25,207 nucleotides of DNA from an uncultured archaeon (GCA_964590575.1 CAZPWM010000011.1:1-25207), one strand, 5' to 3'; numbered from the stretch's first letter, positions 2,980 to 19,621 are shown. A program made the numbers and translations. Notes: a model not told the origin generated them from the letters alone.

Positions 2980-4173
2980 TTGTCAGAATTGACTGCCCTG
3001 TTCGACCCCGAAGCAATCCTTAAGCTAGATGGGATTGATGAGTTAGACAGAATGAGGGCAGAACCTAATCCATACTGGAATCGGGCACGATTGGAGGTCA
3101 CTTGGAACCTTCCGGTGATGTCAGGATTACTCAATAGTCCTCGAATATCAGTCCAACCTATGCGTCTTGCTACACGCGAAGAACTTCTCTTGTTCCATGA
3201 CCCATCATATATAGAAACACTGGAACTCTTTGGAAATATGGGTAGCGCATTCGCGTCTCGTTTTGGATTGGACACTAATGAATGCCCGATTTTCCCAGGT
3301 GTGGACAAATATGCCAGCTATATTGTTGGTGGCACCATAGATGCGGTAATGGGAGTGGCTGATGGTACGTTCGAAGATGCCGTATCGTTCTTTGGAGGGC
3401 TCCATCATGCACTTGAGAGTCAGGCTGCAGGATTCTGTTATTACAATGATTGTGTAGTCGCGATAAAGAAGTTCCAACAGAAATATCCGGGAAAGAAAGT
3501 TCTCTATCTCGATACCGATGCCCATCACGGCGATGGTGTTCAACATGCTTTCTATGACGATCCCAGTGTCCTGACGATTTCACTTCACGAGCTGAGCATG
3601 GGGTTCTTCCCCGGAACAGGTAGAGTGGAAGAGGTCGGGATTGGTGAAGGAAAAGGCTACTCAGTCAATATTCCTCTACCCCCTCTCACAGATGATGTTG
3701 AATGGTGGAGAGCCTTTGAGGATGTGGTGGTGCCAATCTGGTTGGCCTACAAACCAGATTTCGTGTTTTGGGAGGTCGGAGCAGATGGCTACATGAATGA
3801 CCCACTGACCGATTTGATGTTGACGTATGACACCTATCAGCGAATTTCGAAGACCGTTCGTCAACTTGTTCACCTTGGAACCAGAAAACTCGTTGTGACT
3901 GGAGGCGGTGGGTACAACGCCGTAGCTGCTGCAAAGATCTGGACCATCCTACTAGCAGACATCGCAGATATTGCATTACCACCGACTATCCCTGCCGAAT
4001 GGATAGAATTATGTCACAAACACGGATTTCAGGTGAAGAGAGGCGGATGGACAAGCAGACCATTCAGGATGCCTAGTGATCAGTATCCAAAGATTCGTCG
4101 AGCTGTGGATGACACTATTGAGAAAGTGAAGAGCCTTATTTTTCCAACCTTTGGATTGGAGGATCAGATTTAG
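2980..4173 (+). CDS. acuC: Zn-dependent histone deacetylase family protein, class I / AcuC-like
   Basis: GGLHHA, GFCYYND, DTDAHHGDG, SLHE, FFPGTG, NIPL, GADG..DPL and GGGGY motifs all intact; TTG start preceded by GGAGGA. Confidence 0.9.
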   Translation: MSELTALFDPEAILKLDGIDELDRMRAEPNPYWNRARLEVTWNLPVMSGLLNSPRISVQPMRLATREELLLFHDPSYIETLELFGNMGSAFASRFGLDTNECPIFPGVDKYASYIVGGTIDAVMGVADGTFEDAVSFFGGLHHALESQAAGFCYYNDCVVAIKKFQQKYPGKKVLYLDTDAHHGDGVQHAFYDDPSVLTISLHELSMGFFPGTGRVEEVGIGEGKGYSVNIPLPPLTDDVEWWRAFEDVVVPIWLAYKPDFVFWEVGADGYMNDPLTDLMLTYDTYQRISKTVRQLVHLGTRKLVVTGGGGYNAVAAAKIWTILLADIADIALPPTIPAEWIELCHKHGFQVKRGGWTSRPFRMPSDQYPKIRRAVDDTIEKVKSLIFPTFGLEDQI

Positions 4174-9240: not shown

Positions 9241-9705
9241 ATGATTCTGCTTGAGAGAATGGCTAGATACTTGGAATGGGCTAACGCCTCAATATGGAAG
9301 ATTGTTGACACTCTCAGTGATGAGGAGTTCAGTCAGTCTCTAGCTGATGGAGTAGGTAGTATTCATGGAAGGTATATCCACCTAGCTGAGGACGCCTGGG
9401 AATGGTTTCATGATTGGCATAGCGAAGAACCGCAAGAACCTGATTTCCAGGGTATGACACGGAATGAGCTCAACCAATTCATAATAGACTATCTGAAGAA
9501 GTGGCAGATTTTAATCGAAGAAAGAACTGTTGACAAGTTTACGGATGAGAGAGCTGGGAAGAGAGTTGTATTAGAGTTTGACGAGATGTTCTTTCATATG
9601 GTGAATCATTTCACGTATCATAGAGGTCAGATTGTGATGGGCTTGAAGATGCTTGGAAAAGAGGTTCCTATGACTGATTACGTCCCGTATAGGTTCTCTA
9701 CCTAG
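9241..9705 (+). CDS. DinB/YfiT-like four-helix-bundle protein
   Basis: WAN, GSI..H, H..NH.TYHRGQ metal-binding signature. Confidence 0.88.
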   Translation: MILLERMARYLEWANASIWKIVDTLSDEEFSQSLADGVGSIHGRYIHLAEDAWEWFHDWHSEEPQEPDFQGMTRNELNQFIIDYLKKWQILIEERTVDKFTDERAGKRVVLEFDEMFFHMVNHFTYHRGQIVMGLKMLGKEVPMTDYVPYRFST

Positions 9706-10015
9706 TAGAAATCAGGTTTTGGTGGCCTAAATAAAGGAAAAATCGGTATATATGTCCGAGGCCACAACTCATGAGAATTCGTTAGTCTACACATGAACCG
9801 CGGTTGTATCAATATGTAACGCCATGTTCTACATAATATTTCATCCGGAGTGGCACGTACAAGGGTGTTCTATGAGAAATGGAAATACGAATCGCGCTTT
9901 ACCCACTTTAATTCAAAGCTCCTTGTCATCTATGCCAAGTGATACAACTTGTTGGTATTTAGACAATAGTATGACAAAGAGGTTTAAATCGCGCCGTGTA
10001 AAATGACGCAGAACT

Positions 10016-16794: not shown

Positions 16795-18000
16795 ATGAGC
16801 AATCTTCTACTCAAGGCTGGAACACTGATTGTCGGTAATGGAGAAACACTCGAGAATGTGTCGATATTAATCAAAGACGACAAAATATCTGAGGTTGGAC
16901 CGAATGTAAATGCATCTCCAGACACCGAAGTTCTAGACTTCTCAGACCGTGTTGTGATGCCCGGTATAATCGATCCCCATGTCCATGTGTGCTTTGACGG
17001 ATCTACTGACCCCGCAGAAGTCAGGAAGTTCTCTGATGAACTACTAGCAATTCGTGGAGCACGGCTTGTGGAGAAGTTGCTTGAATATGGTGTCACCACT
17101 GCGGGTGATGCAGCAGGTAGAGGAAATGTTCCATTTGCTGTGAAAGAGGCAGTTGAGAAAGGACTTGTGAATGGTCCACGCGTTCTTCCTTGTGGGAGAA
17201 TGATAACAATCAGTGGTGGAAGAGACTCCCTTGGAGGCGCAAATGAGGCAGACGGTCCCGATAATGTTCGTCGGGCTGTACGAGAAGAGATTGGTCGTGG
17301 TGCGCGCTACATCAAACTTGCTGCAACCGGCGCAATATCATCTGAGCATACGGAGAGCTTCAATTCACAGTTTGATTTGGATGAACTTCAAGCGGCTGCA
17401 AATGAAGCACGTAAAGTTCACTTGAAGTCGCATGCACATGCCTATGGTGAGGAGGGAATCAGAAATACAATTCTGGCGGGAGTTGACGTCCTTGTACATG
17501 GACATCCACTGAGTAAGGAGAACCTCGAGTTAATGAAGAAGCATAACACCATGTACATGCCCACGATTGTGACCTATTACGAGTCACAACTCCATCATGA
17601 TGATGGTGATCTTCCTGAGTACATGGTGCGTAAGGAGAAAGAGATATTCCCGCTCATCGAAGAAGGCGTTAGAAATGCAGTCAAGGCAGGGATAGAACTA
17701 GTCGTTGGGACTGATTCGGGGATGCCTTACACACTTTATGGAAAGTCAACTGCTGAAGAGATGGAACTGATGGTTAAATTGGGAGGAGCATCTGAGATGA
17801 CTGCTATCATTGCTGGAACAAAGAATGCTGCAATTTCGATGAATATCGATTCTACAATAGGGACTATTGAAGTTGGTAAATCCGCAGATCTGCTTGTTCT
17901 TGCTCCAGGAAAGGACCCACTCAAGGATATTACGGTCCTCCAGGACAAGGGGTCCATCTCAAGAGTTATTCTCATGGGCAAGACAGTGATTGAGCGTTAG
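16795..18000 (+). CDS. Amidohydrolase superfamily protein (Xaa-Pro dipeptidase / HutI-like subgroup)
   Basis: PGIIDPHVH, IKL (carboxylated Lys), HAHAYG, HG, GTDSG, GTIEVGKSADL. Confidence 0.88.
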   Translation: MSNLLLKAGTLIVGNGETLENVSILIKDDKISEVGPNVNASPDTEVLDFSDRVVMPGIIDPHVHVCFDGSTDPAEVRKFSDELLAIRGARLVEKLLEYGVTTAGDAAGRGNVPFAVKEAVEKGLVNGPRVLPCGRMITISGGRDSLGGANEADGPDNVRRAVREEIGRGARYIKLAATGAISSEHTESFNSQFDLDELQAAANEARKVHLKSHAHAYGEEGIRNTILAGVDVLVHGHPLSKENLELMKKHNTMYMPTIVTYYESQLHHDDGDLPEYMVRKEKEIFPLIEEGVRNAVKAGIELVVGTDSGMPYTLYGKSTAEEMELMVKLGGASEMTAIIAGTKNAAISMNIDSTIGTIEVGKSADLLVLAPGKDPLKDITVLQDKGSISRVILMGKTVIER

Positions 18001-18818
18001 ATGTATGTGTGACGAATCTGCGCTGGACGTCCCTTAACATGGATTGTTTCAAGGAAAGTTGACATTGAATCATTTGGAAACTCATAACCTTGGTCGAGAA
18101 TTTCCTGTTTTAGATTCTTGAATATCTCAAGTACAGTTTCGAATTTCGGATCATCTAGAGCATCACAGAACAGTTTGTAGGTCCCTTCAGACATACCCAT
18201 TTGTTTCACATGAGGCGTCCACCACTTCAAAGGAGGGGTCCATGACTTCTGCATCGTGAACCATAGATTGACTGCCGCTACAACTGAGCGGAATGCATTC
18301 AATTTGGAATCATATGTGAAACCGCGTCGCTGATTGATATCGGTATATCCTAGAGCTCCAAGTAGCGTGCAGTACTTGTTTTTGAGACGGTCAAAGTGCT
18401 CCTCATCGGGATATCTAGCGAGTTTCCTTCTCCATTCCTCTAATTTTCCCGTGGAATCATGAATCACAACGCCCTCAGCGTACGGAAAATGGTCCATGTC
18501 CAAAGGTGAATCTATCTGTTGTCTGAACCAAGCATCGGATATTGGAGAGAAGTCGATCACTAATTTTCGAGGTTCAACTGACTCGTCGAACTCCAGCCAG
18601 ATTGTATCTTTCAATTCTAGACTATCATAATACTTCTCTGTGACGTAAATAAGAGCATCCCAGTCAGTGGTCGGTGCACCAAATCCTGTGGCCCTACTTC
18701 CCCATAGCATCACTCCTAGCACATGGGGTTCTTTGACAAGTCCGTCAAGACGCTCGCGGGCCATCTTGTCCTCTATCTCTTCTATGCTTCTCACAATTGG
18801 AATCTGATTCTTGCTCAC
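17997..18818 (-). CDS. Pol-beta superfamily nucleotidyltransferase with a C-terminal helical substrate-binding-like domain
   Basis: hGS-x-A-x-G...DWD motif (WGSRATG..TTDWD), third acidic residue (VID), helical C-terminus with PPLKW; probable GTG start at 18818 after GAGGCGA. Confidence 0.75.
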   Translation of the reverse strand: MSKNQIPIVRSIEEIEDKMARERLDGLVKEPHVLGVMLWGSRATGFGAPTTDWDALIYVTEKYYDSLELKDTIWLEFDESVEPRKLVIDFSPISDAWFRQQIDSPLDMDHFPYAEGVVIHDSTGKLEEWRRKLARYPDEEHFDRLKNKYCTLLGALGYTDINQRRGFTYDSKLNAFRSVVAAVNLWFTMQKSWTPPLKWWTPHVKQMGMSEGTYKLFCDALDDPKFETVLEIFKNLKQEILDQGYEFPNDSMSTFLETIHVKGRPAQIRHTYI

Positions 18819-18884
18819 CAGATGTCGCCTCAATCAGTTTCTGCAAGTATCCAGCATTAAAGAGTAATTGTCTACGCGAGAAAG

Positions 18885-18962
18885 AGTGAAGGCGCCACAC
18901 CGCCGGGAAGCGATAACGACAGACACTAGAAGTCGTGAATTGGGACCGTGGCGCTCTACACT
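18885..18962 (-). ncRNA. Candidate structured small RNA (three-way junction, tRNA-like top half)
   Basis: GC-rich intergenic element with three nested stems (18892-18898/18948-18954, 18899-18903/18910-18914, 18916-18920/18932-18936). The minus strand is favoured by a G-U pair, an upstream TTATTA box and a downstream pyrimidine tract. Confidence 0.5.
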
Positions 18963-19036
18963 TGTAAGTACTGTTCAACTCTAATAAGCACCTAGAATTT
19001 TGGTGAGGTTAAATTCATTCCATCCGACAGCATACC

Positions 19037-19228
19037 ATGACAGACACTGCATTATTGTCCTTTGTGAGAAAATTCACGAAAGAGCAGCTCCAAGCAATAG
19101 ATTCAGTCCTCCGTATTCTTGACCCAGAGGAGTATCGTGACTATCACGACCAATTTGGCGTTTGTAATGCACCTGACCGTATTGAGCTACTGAGAAAAGA
19201 AATACGGACTGCTTTGGGCAAGATGTGA
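19037..19228 (+). CDS. Small helical hypothetical protein
   Basis: 63-aa ORF filling an intergenic gap; TTAAAT box about 27 bp upstream (leaderless-type); amphipathic helices. Confidence 0.5.
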   Translation: MTDTALLSFVRKFTKEQLQAIDSVLRILDPEEYRDYHDQFGVCNAPDRIELLRKEIRTALGKM

Positions 19229-19229
19229 A

Positions 19230-19481
19230 TTATACTATCACAAATCCTGGAGGAAACAATACAAAATACTCAATCACAATGGAGAGGAGAATTCCTCCTA
19301 AAATCAATCCTTTGCCCCTCTTTGGATTGACGTCAGTGAACCAGAGTATAGCACCGACGAGTACTACAATGACCCCTGAAATCTGACCGATAAATATCAG
19401 AAAGTCCCATATCTCAGCAAGGTAGGCTCCTATCATCTGCGCAAAGTTTTGAAGTGGAGACTGTAGTAGTACTAGATTCAT
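19230..19481 (-). CDS. Small two-TM membrane protein (VirB2/TrbC/CedA1 pilin-like topology)
   Basis: Start moved to ATG 19481 because the longer ORF runs through the tRNA; amphipathic helix plus two hydrophobic helices separated by NPKRGK. Confidence 0.65.
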   Translation of the reverse strand: MNLVLLQSPLQNFAQMIGAYLAEIWDFLIFIGQISGVIVVLVGAILWFTDVNPKRGKGLILGGILLSIVIEYFVLFPPGFVIV

Positions 19482-19543: not shown

Positions 19544-19621
19544 TGGTGGGCCCGGCGTGATTTGAACACGCGACATCCGCCTTATCAGAGCGGCGCAATA
19601 ACCAGTCTATGCCACGGGCCC
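19544..19621 (-). tRNA. tRNA-Ile(GAT), intronless, CCA encoded
   Basis: GGGCCCG/CGGGCCC acceptor stem; anticodon arm CCGCT-CTGATAA-GGCGG; T arm GCGTG-TTCAAAT-CACGC; ends ACCA; TTTTTAT box about 30 bp upstream. Confidence 0.96.

Follow-up and report, generated by a model that had tools for sequence, protein, structure and literature searches.

The window, i.e. the whole stretch of DNA that was analysed, comprises 25,207 nt from an uncultured archaeon (GCA_964590575.1, CAZPWM010000011.1:1-25207) and contains a predicted small RNA of approximately 75-80 nt on its minus strand (18878..18957). Two genes flank this element. Downstream lies a nucleotidyltransferase gene (17997..18833, minus strand) outside the RNA, whose product carries a DUF4037 domain (Pfam, 30.6 bits, above the cut-off); the Pfam matches of this gene to Polbeta and NTP_transf_2 are below their cut-offs. 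On the other side, a divergent ORF of 63 aa is found (19037..19228, plus strand). All 27 further genomes of the genus have it, and wherever the element occurs this ORF lies 5' of it; a search with the ORF as query gave no match in 58 genomes of other genera, and none was obtained in Pfam, NCBIfam or the Atlas.

Read 5' to 3' on the minus strand, the element begins with the 5' strand of a closing helix, P1, of the sequence (A)GCGCCAC (18948..18955). This strand pairs with GUGGCGCC (18891..18898), the 3' strand, as indicated by the P1 fold and by pair changes between copies. The 11-nt single-stranded segment GGUCCCAAUUC (18937..18947) is delineated by the alignments, in which its GGUCCC is largely conserved. 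It holds the second of the two UCCC motifs of the element, the other being part of UUCCCGG. A variable segment including ACGAC (18928..18936) differs in sequence and length between species without compensation, and is followed by the conserved block AGUGUCUGUCGU (18916..18927), of which UGUCU and UC are invariant in 27/27 copies. The hairpin P3, UCGC-UUCCCG-GCGG with a linker U (18899..18913), contains UCCCGGCGG, which is likewise invariant in 27/27 copies. The pyrimidine-rich tail UUCACUCUUUCUC (18878..18890) is the putative termination region; in most copies UUCAC precedes a T-rich tract, which reaches T5 in some of them and is weak in the genome of origin.

Much of what a first-pass annotation had read from this region is indeed in place on the minus strand. 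This applies to a closing stem GCGCCAC (18954-18948)/GUGGCGC (18898-18892), a second stem AUCGC (18914-18910)/GCGGU (18903-18899) around the loop UUCCCG (18909-18904), the 11-nt single strand at 18947-18937, an outer stem extension AGUG (18962-18959)/CACU (18888-18885), and the sequence CUCUUUCUC after the stem (18886-18878). The upstream TTATTA box exists as well (18987-18982), but its distance from the stem is 27-32 nt and not 20-25 nt. A third stem, ACGAC (18936-18932)/GUCGU (18920-18916) around UUCUAGUGUCU, can be formed by the sequence of the genome of origin but is not conserved: it occurs in the MFE fold of only 10-11 of the 27 copies and its middle pair is broken in 8/24. Its 3' half falls into the invariant block and its 5' half into the variable segment, and its level of pairing is reached by 98/500 shuffles.

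The same annotation had proposed a tRNA mimic, Y-RNA-like or similar, and had assigned the RNA to no known family. The last statement holds, as a comparison with Rfam gave no match to the element at the gathering score or at E-values up to 10. Across the window, tRNA-Ile (19544-19621) is the sole Rfam match at the gathering score (63.4 bits, the positive control) and the only tRNA reported by ARAGORN, which finds nothing at the element with introns allowed or not. The tRNA mimicry itself is not supported. Neither a T-loop nor a conserved anticodon arm is present, the loop UUCCCG has 6 nt as opposed to the 7-nt T-loop UUCRANY, and the 11-nt strand replaces the D arm. The 7+5 acceptor/T-arm geometry is found in the genome of origin and in copies with an A...U flank, but other copies have 8+4 pairs separated by 0 or 1 nt; neither the fifth pair of the small hairpin nor the zero-nucleotide junction is kept. 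The triplet CUA, suggested to occupy a 7-nt loop of the refolded third stem, is absent from five copies, and tRNA-Pyl was ruled out since CUA is not conserved. A Y-RNA-like identity is not supported either: no TROVE/Ro60 protein (PF05731) was found in the genome of origin (91% complete) by a search with positive controls in Deinococcus and Bacteroides genomes, and no Y RNA of Rfam matches. Box C/D guide RNAs are marked by C/D boxes with a K-turn (RUGAUGA/CUGA), and H/ACA guide RNAs by an ACA box 3' of the lower stem (ANA). Rfam gave no match to either type, and inspection of the element revealed no RUGAUGA/CUGA pair and UUCAC, not ANA, after the helix.

The element is single-copy in the genome of origin. 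BLAST against the 86 genomes of the family yielded strong single matches in 23 other genomes of the same genus, and a covariance model was built from 23 copies. This model matches positions 18878-18958 of the window with 98.7 bits and identifies exactly one copy in 26 of the 27 other genomes of the genus. Run against the remaining 15 genera, the model gave nothing convincing, with one match of E = 0.74 (per genome) in genus g9. The sole genus member lacking the element is G034, where the two flanking genes are directly adjacent. In syntenic genomes, the element is 90-95% identical, compared with 71-86% for the surrounding 451 nt, which include parts of the two genes. In four genomes (G038, G039, G042, and G053), 23 or 63 nt are inserted between GGCGCCACG and ACGGUCCC, just 5' of the GGUCCCAAUUC block, and P1 still closes around the insertion. 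A bulge-helix-bulge intron was considered for these insertions and rejected, as they contain no such motif; the insertion forms a hairpin of its own with a conserved ACGG. An apparent partial copy of the element turned out to be one of these insertion variants, and BLAST of a unit termed "RNA-2" gave no further copy in the genus. An att site of a mobile element beside tRNA-Ile was also dismissed, since the element lacks similarity to the 3' end of tRNA-Ile.

Folding of the 86-nt stretch on the minus strand gives an MFE of -29.1 kcal/mol (z = -2.98), which none of 200 shuffles equalled. The plus strand folds equally well (z = -3.27), so that folding alone cannot choose the strand. Only two structures are kept in all copies, and both appear in the MFE fold of 27/27: the closing helix P1, with 8 bp (7 bp if its first base is A), and the CCGC/GCGG hairpin P3. 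Together they amount to 12 kept pairs, with a linker of 0 nt in seven genomes and 1 nt in the others. Across the copies, P1 changes from C-G to U-A, from C-G to U.G, and from G-C to G.U. In P1 and P3 combined, one double change (C-G to U-A) and five pairing-preserving single changes stand beside one mismatch, a level matched by 23/500 column shuffles; the five single changes include the three wobble changes used for the strand argument. The covariation is weak because the helices are almost invariant within the genus. Hence, covariation in relatives is seen as one compensatory change in P1/P3, but it is thin, and the P1/P3 structure is compatible with the data without being proven by covariation. 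The three independent wobble changes pair on the minus strand only (U.G in G039, G.U in G038, and U.G in P3 of the genome of origin), although a change in one lineage, in which an A faces a C at the base of P1, would speak for the plus strand instead. The minus strand is favoured on account of the wobble changes, the fixed promoter spacing, and the orientation of two related RNAs, X and Z.

The putative promoter is a TATA-like box, TTATTAG in the genome of origin (18981..18987, minus strand) and TTAT(T/C)A(G/A) throughout, which ends exactly 25 nt before (A/G)GCGCC in 27/27 copies, with a spacer that varies in sequence. Such a spacing fits an archaeal TATA box with a transcription start 1-3 nt before the closing helix. 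The pyrimidine/T-rich tract after the helix provides a putative terminator, so that the element has a predicted promoter and terminator of its own, both deduced from sequence only. An independent transcript of about 80 nt, as the first-pass annotation had suggested, is supported in this way at a predicted length of 75-80 nt. None of the 24 sequencing data sets listed as containing the region is recorded as RNA.

The alternative in the same annotation, a cis-regulatory leader, has to be weighed at this point. A 5' leader or riboswitch of the nucleotidyltransferase gene would account for the orientation of the element, which is that of the gene, and for its position upstream of the gene in most genomes. 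However, the gene has a promoter-like box of its own, CTCTTTAATG (18855..18864, minus strand), which is conserved as GCGCAGACAATCATGCTTTAATG and lies outside the RNA, between the element and the gene. This box stays with the gene despite a further unit inserted between element and gene in three genomes (L004, L017, and L023), and it is also found in G034, where the gene is in place and the element is missing. In another three genomes (L015, L016, and L018), a different gene on the other strand follows the element. The linkage is thus broken in 6/27 genomes, the constant association within one transcript that characterises a cis-leader or riboswitch is absent, and no riboswitch of Rfam matches. 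A leader on the plus strand, belonging to the 63-aa ORF, would draw on the good folding of that strand and would carry the leader-like CCGCCGGGAAG, but would place the conserved TATA-like box on the downstream side of the element and turn three wobble changes into A.C mismatches. Cis-regulation on either strand is accordingly regarded as very improbable, the least credible of the readings discussed here.

The signature GUCUG(U)CGU...UCCCGGCGG connects the element to two other RNAs. RNA X is the sole other locus type with this signature, and RNA Z carries a close variant of it. As a pattern, GTCTG(N)CGT(2-9 nt)TCCCGGCGG is found in 54 out of the 400 Asgard genomes, each of them from family f1 (53/85 and the genome of origin); 314 genomes outside this family gave no match, and neither did the reversed control pattern in the 400 genomes. 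Each match is either X-type or element-type, and 14 genomes of the genus, the genome of origin included, have both. X was reached from the weak model match in g9 and then by BLAST; the covariance model of the element thus extends to X weakly (E = 0.74 per genome). It is a conserved RNA of about 105 nt, found in 44/86 genomes and 8/16 genera of the family and, within the genus of the element, at loci other than that of the element. A TATA box of its own lies about 21 nt upstream, it is preceded by tRNA-Gln and followed by genes for a SAM methyltransferase and an aEF2-like protein, and 7 of 15 RNAalifold pairs show compensatory change. One copy of X, in G015 (L057/L087), is truncated and rearranged, and its likeness to the 3' tail of the element was kept out of the evidence.

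Z has a length of about 62 nt, lies on contig C15 of the genome of origin (G000:C15), and was found in 36/86 genomes from six genera. Its two helices vary by many exchanges of G.U/A-U and G-C pairs, and 2 of 18 predicted pairs show compensatory change; G.U pairs are frequent in the covarying helices of both X and Z. X contains GUCCCUCCCGG and Z contains AGUGUCGUCCUCCCGGCGGC. X- or Z-like copies were also detected in g4, g6, and g15, three genera not reached by BLAST, and Rfam has no family at either locus. The element shares the features of this core family, namely a length within about 60-105 nt, a promoter-like box, and a closing helix around (A)GU(G)UC..CGU..YUCCCGGCGG. It is probably best described as a genus-specific sibling of the more widespread Thorarchaeaceae RNAs X and Z, related to them either by homology or by convergence on one target. 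The element itself is most likely a genuine gene for a small RNA, belonging to a single genus of Thorarchaeota.

The cores of all three RNAs align with the leader of a gene encoding a protein of 89 aa (G000:C14:41594-41860, minus strand), which is the candidate target. The 11-mer CCGCCGGGAGG occurs four times in the genome of origin: three of these sites are antisense to X, Z, and a tRNA gene, respectively, and the fourth lies on the sense strand just before the start of the 89-aa gene. This gene is present in 66/86 genomes of the family and in all 16 genera, and its homologues are Thorarchaeota records, except for P0057, which is labelled Lokiarchaeota by its source. The protein has no match in Pfam or NCBIfam, and its AlphaFold2 model has a mean pLDDT of 64, too low for a fold search. 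Its leader consists of TTTATATT, about 21 nt of further sequence, and then GUCUA-CCGCCGGGAGGG-CUAAGACACU-AUG. Among 33 leaders from several genera, CCGCCGGGAGG is kept in 26 and GCCGGGA in 32, the last one having CACCGGGAGG. The leader is devoid of a stable fold (z = -0.33).

Two blocks of the element are predicted to pair with this leader. Block 1, CUUCCCGGCGGU, lies within the P3 hairpin region (18899..18913) and is antisense to ACCGCCGGGAGG of the leader, with 12 pairs including one G.U. Block 2 is the conserved AGUGUCUGUCGU, from which AGUGUCU or UGUCGU(A) is antisense to AGACACU or (U)ACGACA of the leader, right up to the start codon. Pairing of both blocks needs an internal loop of 10 nt versus 4 nt and the opening of the P3 stem.

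The strength of this complementarity was assessed by pairing each small RNA with the leader of its own genome and with 200 shuffled leaders per pair, the duplex energies here and in the ranking below leaving intramolecular structure aside. For the element, 24 cognate pairs gave dG values of -26.7 to -38.5 kcal/mol and z-scores of -2.6 to -5.8; in 15 of them none of the 200 shuffles was as good, and in the other nine 1-3 were. X reached -30.4 to -38.9 kcal/mol (z = -3.6 to -6.0) in 14 pairs and Z -28.7 to -41.5 kcal/mol (z = -4.6 to -8.1) in 19 pairs, with 0/200 shuffles as good in 14/14 and 19/19 pairs, respectively. In the genome of origin, internal regions of the small RNAs were also ranked against 9316 start regions (-36 to +3) of ORFs of at least 60 aa, a set from a crude ORF call that includes spurious ORFs; an earlier scan of full-length RNAs against 85-nt windows had given unrealistically long duplexes. 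The 89-aa leader takes rank 1 of 9316 for Z (-38.3 kcal/mol, z = -6.2) and for X (-37.8 kcal/mol, z = -4.9), and rank 5 of 9316 for the element (-34.8 kcal/mol, z = -4.5). The element therefore has conserved and better-than-chance complementarity to the Shine-Dalgarno and start region of a distant mRNA, as is typical of trans-acting small RNAs. The small RNAs and their leaders show no clean compensatory change, and the RNAs do not follow deviations of the leader at the distal CC. A possible covariation at the base before GUGUC in Z was set aside, since only 8 of 15 pairs fit.

These observations make it probable, though not by a wide measure, that the element is an independently transcribed, trans-acting small RNA which masks the ribosome-binding site of the 89-aa gene. 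Conservation, promoter spacing, family membership, and the complementarity with its own conservation and genome-wide rank are supported directly; that the RNA is made, that it meets the leader, and that the outcome is repression rather than activation is what we infer. According to the proposed mechanism, the 8-bp terminal helix would clamp a minus-strand RNA of about 75-80 nt, which would offer two conserved blocks: AGUGUCUGUCGU and, carried by the hairpin, CUUCCCGGCGG(U). Pairing would begin between UUCCCG, the C-rich loop of the hairpin, and GGGAGG of the leader. From there, pairing would extend into GCGG and then across the internal loop into AGUGUCU. The resulting duplex would hide the Shine-Dalgarno sequence together with what follows it as far as the start codon, thereby blocking translation initiation of the 89-aa gene. 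The element, X, and Z should all be able to cover the same leader through their near-identical core. Conservation of a leader that is complementary to the element could in principle have a different cause, given that the Shine-Dalgarno sequence lies within it.

The match to the leader also admits an explanation at the level of DNA. The element might be the relic of an inverted duplication of the 89-aa leader, or a DNA-level site, and be kept by linkage or recent origin without any function as RNA. Its reverse complement does align with the leader as ACCGCCGGGA, a G, and then AGACACTA after a 6-nt gap, and its limitation to one genus and absence from G034 would suit a young relic. On the other hand, a relic would hardly be more conserved than the adjoining coding DNA, or keep the distance to a promoter-like box fixed in 27/27 copies and a closing helix intact around insertions of 23 and 63 nt. 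Furthermore, the wobble changes make sense at the RNA level only, and X and Z, which have the same core, possess covarying helices. A relic is for these reasons considered unlikely, and a small RNA acting on the 89-aa leader remains the preferred reading.

A connection to tRNA nevertheless exists at the level of short sequences. At least four tRNA genes of the genome of origin contain UCCCGGCGG where the 3' strand of the T-stem joins that of the acceptor stem. In X, 12 nt (CCCUCCCGGCGG), and in Z, 11 nt (CCUCCCGGCGG), are identical to the corresponding 3' strand of a tRNA gene on contig C10 (G000:C10). The acceptor 5' strand, both the D and the T arm, and the CCA of this gene are normal, but about 90 nt of extra sequence are present. 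When three putative introns are removed, tRNA-Asn(GUU) is the commonest outcome, with 3076 of 22429 boundary combinations, and the gene is most likely a three-intron tRNA-Asn(GUU). The core of X and Z, CCUCC-CGGCGG(C), equals its T-stem 3' and acceptor 3' strands, which would also form its predicted 18-nt last exon, and the leader motif GCCGCCG-GGAGG equals its acceptor 5' strand and T-stem 5' strand. By rough hand arithmetic, the chance of a 12-mer match of the core to any tRNA of this genome is about 0.002-0.01. The identity of core and leader motif with tRNA may reflect origin, mimicry, or chance.

One interpretation of these identities is that the element acts as a mimic of a tRNA minihelix, in which P1 (8 bp) stacked on P3 (4-5 bp) would form a 12-bp helix resembling the acceptor/T-arm and read by tRNA enzymes or by the neighbouring nucleotidyltransferase. 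The 12 stacked pairs with no linker in seven genomes and 1 nt elsewhere, the junction sequence UCCCGGCGG common to the tRNA genes mentioned above, and the pol-beta-type nucleotidyltransferase gene downstream in most genomes are in line with this idea. Yet ARAGORN, with and without introns, and the tRNA model of Rfam are negative, the 6-nt loop UUCCCG lacks the purine-A of a T-loop, and no NCCA follows the helix, although CCA is encoded in each of the four tRNA genes of the genome of origin that were read to their 3' end. Linkage of the element to the nucleotidyltransferase gene is moreover lacking, this gene being absent downstream in three genomes and separated by insertions in three, with G034 having the gene without the element, and the conservation of AGUGUCUGUCGU is left unexplained. 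Overall, a minihelix mimic appears quite improbable. Even less credence, although not none, is given to the proposal that a circuit is built around tRNA-Asn, with the element and its CUUCCCGGCGG as a diverged member of a tRNA-linked control. If such a circuit existed, a small RNA paired with the leader would reproduce the 12-bp acceptor/T minihelix of tRNA-Asn, and the mRNA might become a substrate of tRNA-processing enzymes in the manner of an external guide sequence. Alternatively, the leader might pair with a piece of tRNA-Asn itself, either its 3' exon or a 3' fragment in free form, and the small RNAs would be mimics or competitors of that piece.

Several known systems resemble parts of the preferred reading, in which the element is an antisense RNA of the 89-aa leader. 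The closest one is sRNA162 of Methanosarcina mazei, which acts in trans in this archaeon by masking a ribosome-binding site with its single-stranded linker, as tested experimentally (PMC3510493). Like sRNA162, the element is an intergenic archaeal RNA with a single-stranded or loop region complementary to the ribosome-binding site and start of a distant mRNA, and repression is predicted. The two RNAs are unrelated in sequence and structure, and the element differs by its terminal clamp helix, its two-block pairing site, its two siblings, and by being known from sequence alone. In Staphylococcus aureus, small RNAs with C-rich UCCC motifs in loops or unpaired regions, namely RsaE and, with its hairpin loops, RNAIII, bind Shine-Dalgarno sequences through these motifs and so keep the initiation complex from forming; several RNAs share the motif (PMC2790875). 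The two C-rich UCCC motifs of the element and GUCCCUCCCGG of X are reminiscent of it. In contrast to these bacterial RNAs, which are unrelated in sequence, the complementarity of the element spans 11-12 nt and 6-7 nt and singles out one leader, not many. The LhrC RNAs of Listeria illustrate sibling small RNAs, i.e. related genes in one genome with a common seed (PMC4132741), and the genome of origin similarly holds the element, X, and Z with a common core. The three archaeal RNAs, however, differ in all parts outside the core and have different phylogenetic ranges.

The likeness to tRNA (RF00005) is confined to a terminal GC-rich helix beside a small hairpin and to UCCCGGCGG, which is identical to tRNA strands of the genome of origin; unlike tRNA, the element has no cloverleaf, D arm, T-loop, conserved anticodon, or CCA, and no tRNA program detects it. 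A "tRNA-like" appearance can hence stem from a short tRNA-identical core instead of a tRNA fold. The element is probably a trans-encoded antisense small RNA of a family found in neither Rfam, which has no entry for the element, X, or Z, nor the literature searched, in which no paper on an Asgard regulatory small RNA with a predicted target was encountered. What comparative data by themselves provide is a set of three promoter-bearing small RNAs and a single, highly conserved leader that all three could cover. The hypothesis drawn from them bears on post-transcriptional control in the closest prokaryotic relatives of eukaryotes.

Further leaders were considered besides that of the 89-aa gene. 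The sequence CGCCGGGAGG at G000:C1:3778 was dropped as a target, as it sits between a TATA-like box and the likely transcription start. GCCGGGA is also kept, in 11/11 genomes, in a second leader, which precedes a 105-aa gene located upstream of hypD; this leader takes rank 3 for Z and rank 5 for X, and may be a further target.

RNA X, one of two sibling small RNAs whose core is almost that of the element, is encoded on the plus strand of G000, the window's own genome (G000:C30:about 3870-3990; locus L149), and in other genomes at loci L088-L145. It is about 105 nt long and has its own TATA box, with tRNA-Gln(CUG) flanking it on one side and a SAM methyltransferase gene and an aEF2-like gene on the other. 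Its helices covary, with 7 of the 15 pairs contributing. In G000 the RNA is reduced and two helices are missing, and the copy in the relative G015 is truncated and rearranged.

The second sibling, RNA Z (G000:C15:about 9680-9745, plus strand; loci L146 and L151), comprises about 62 nt with the layout GGCGUCC...GGACGCC-ACC. It is located between two opposite-strand genes, one for a Zn-ribbon/NYN-like protein and the other for an ArsB/NhaD-type permease. The core of Z is a near-perfect antisense match to the leader of the 89-aa gene, the predicted common target of the element and both siblings.

A 105-aa gene on the plus strand (G000:C17:19416-19733; L186:517-834) lies directly upstream of hypD, and its product gives a weak winged-helix match. 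Its leader consists of a 5' hairpin followed by (C)GCCGGGA(A), conserved in 11 of 11 genomes, and is a possible second target of the element, X and Z. In the duplex scan of G000, a 72-aa ORF (G000:C52:about 6426, minus strand) has a start region, CACCUCCGGGAGGUGAGAC..., that ranked second for Z and third for the element and shows a similar CCGGGAGG..GAC layout.

In six genomes of the element's genus, a second promoter-bearing unit, RNA-2, lies directly 3' of the element's tail (L004, L015, L017, L018, L022/L053 and L023; for example, L017:1575-1790). This unit of about 150-170 nt opens with TGGGCTTAAAT, and GGGGTGAG comes about 24 nt later. Conserved within it are GA(A)CCATTCTAA and CATTGCA..TGCAA, and a GC hairpin with T6-8 forms its end. 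RNA-2 is absent from the window; an Rfam search returned no matches, and BLAST revealed no further copy in the genus.

The window also encodes, on the minus strand, tRNA-Ile (19544-19621) and a small two-helix membrane protein (19230-19460) with a weak DUF6750 match, whose sequence includes ...VIEYFVLFPPGFVIV. The membrane protein gene comes after tRNA-Ile in all syntenic genomes and is tandemly duplicated in L015.

Near a contig end of G000 (G000:C137, minus strand), the 3' end of the 16S rRNA gene reads ...GCUGCGGAUGGA and then AGAGGAUGAGG, replacing the usual UCACCUCCU. Possible explanations are an intron, an anti-Shine-Dalgarno region of unusual sequence, or a break in the assembly.

Across the whole genome, ARAGORN called only 16 tRNA genes in its intron-free search and 33 once introns were permitted, none of them for Asn, Tyr or Ser; many G000 tRNA genes therefore probably carry non-canonical or multiple introns. 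One gene (G000:C10:about 25905-26067, plus strand; L148), missed by ARAGORN even with -i and by the Rfam tRNA model, contains about 90 nt of extra sequence split over three places, one within the T-loop, and is most likely a tRNA-Asn(GUU) with three introns. Four G000 tRNA genes were read at the 3' end, and all four encode CCA.
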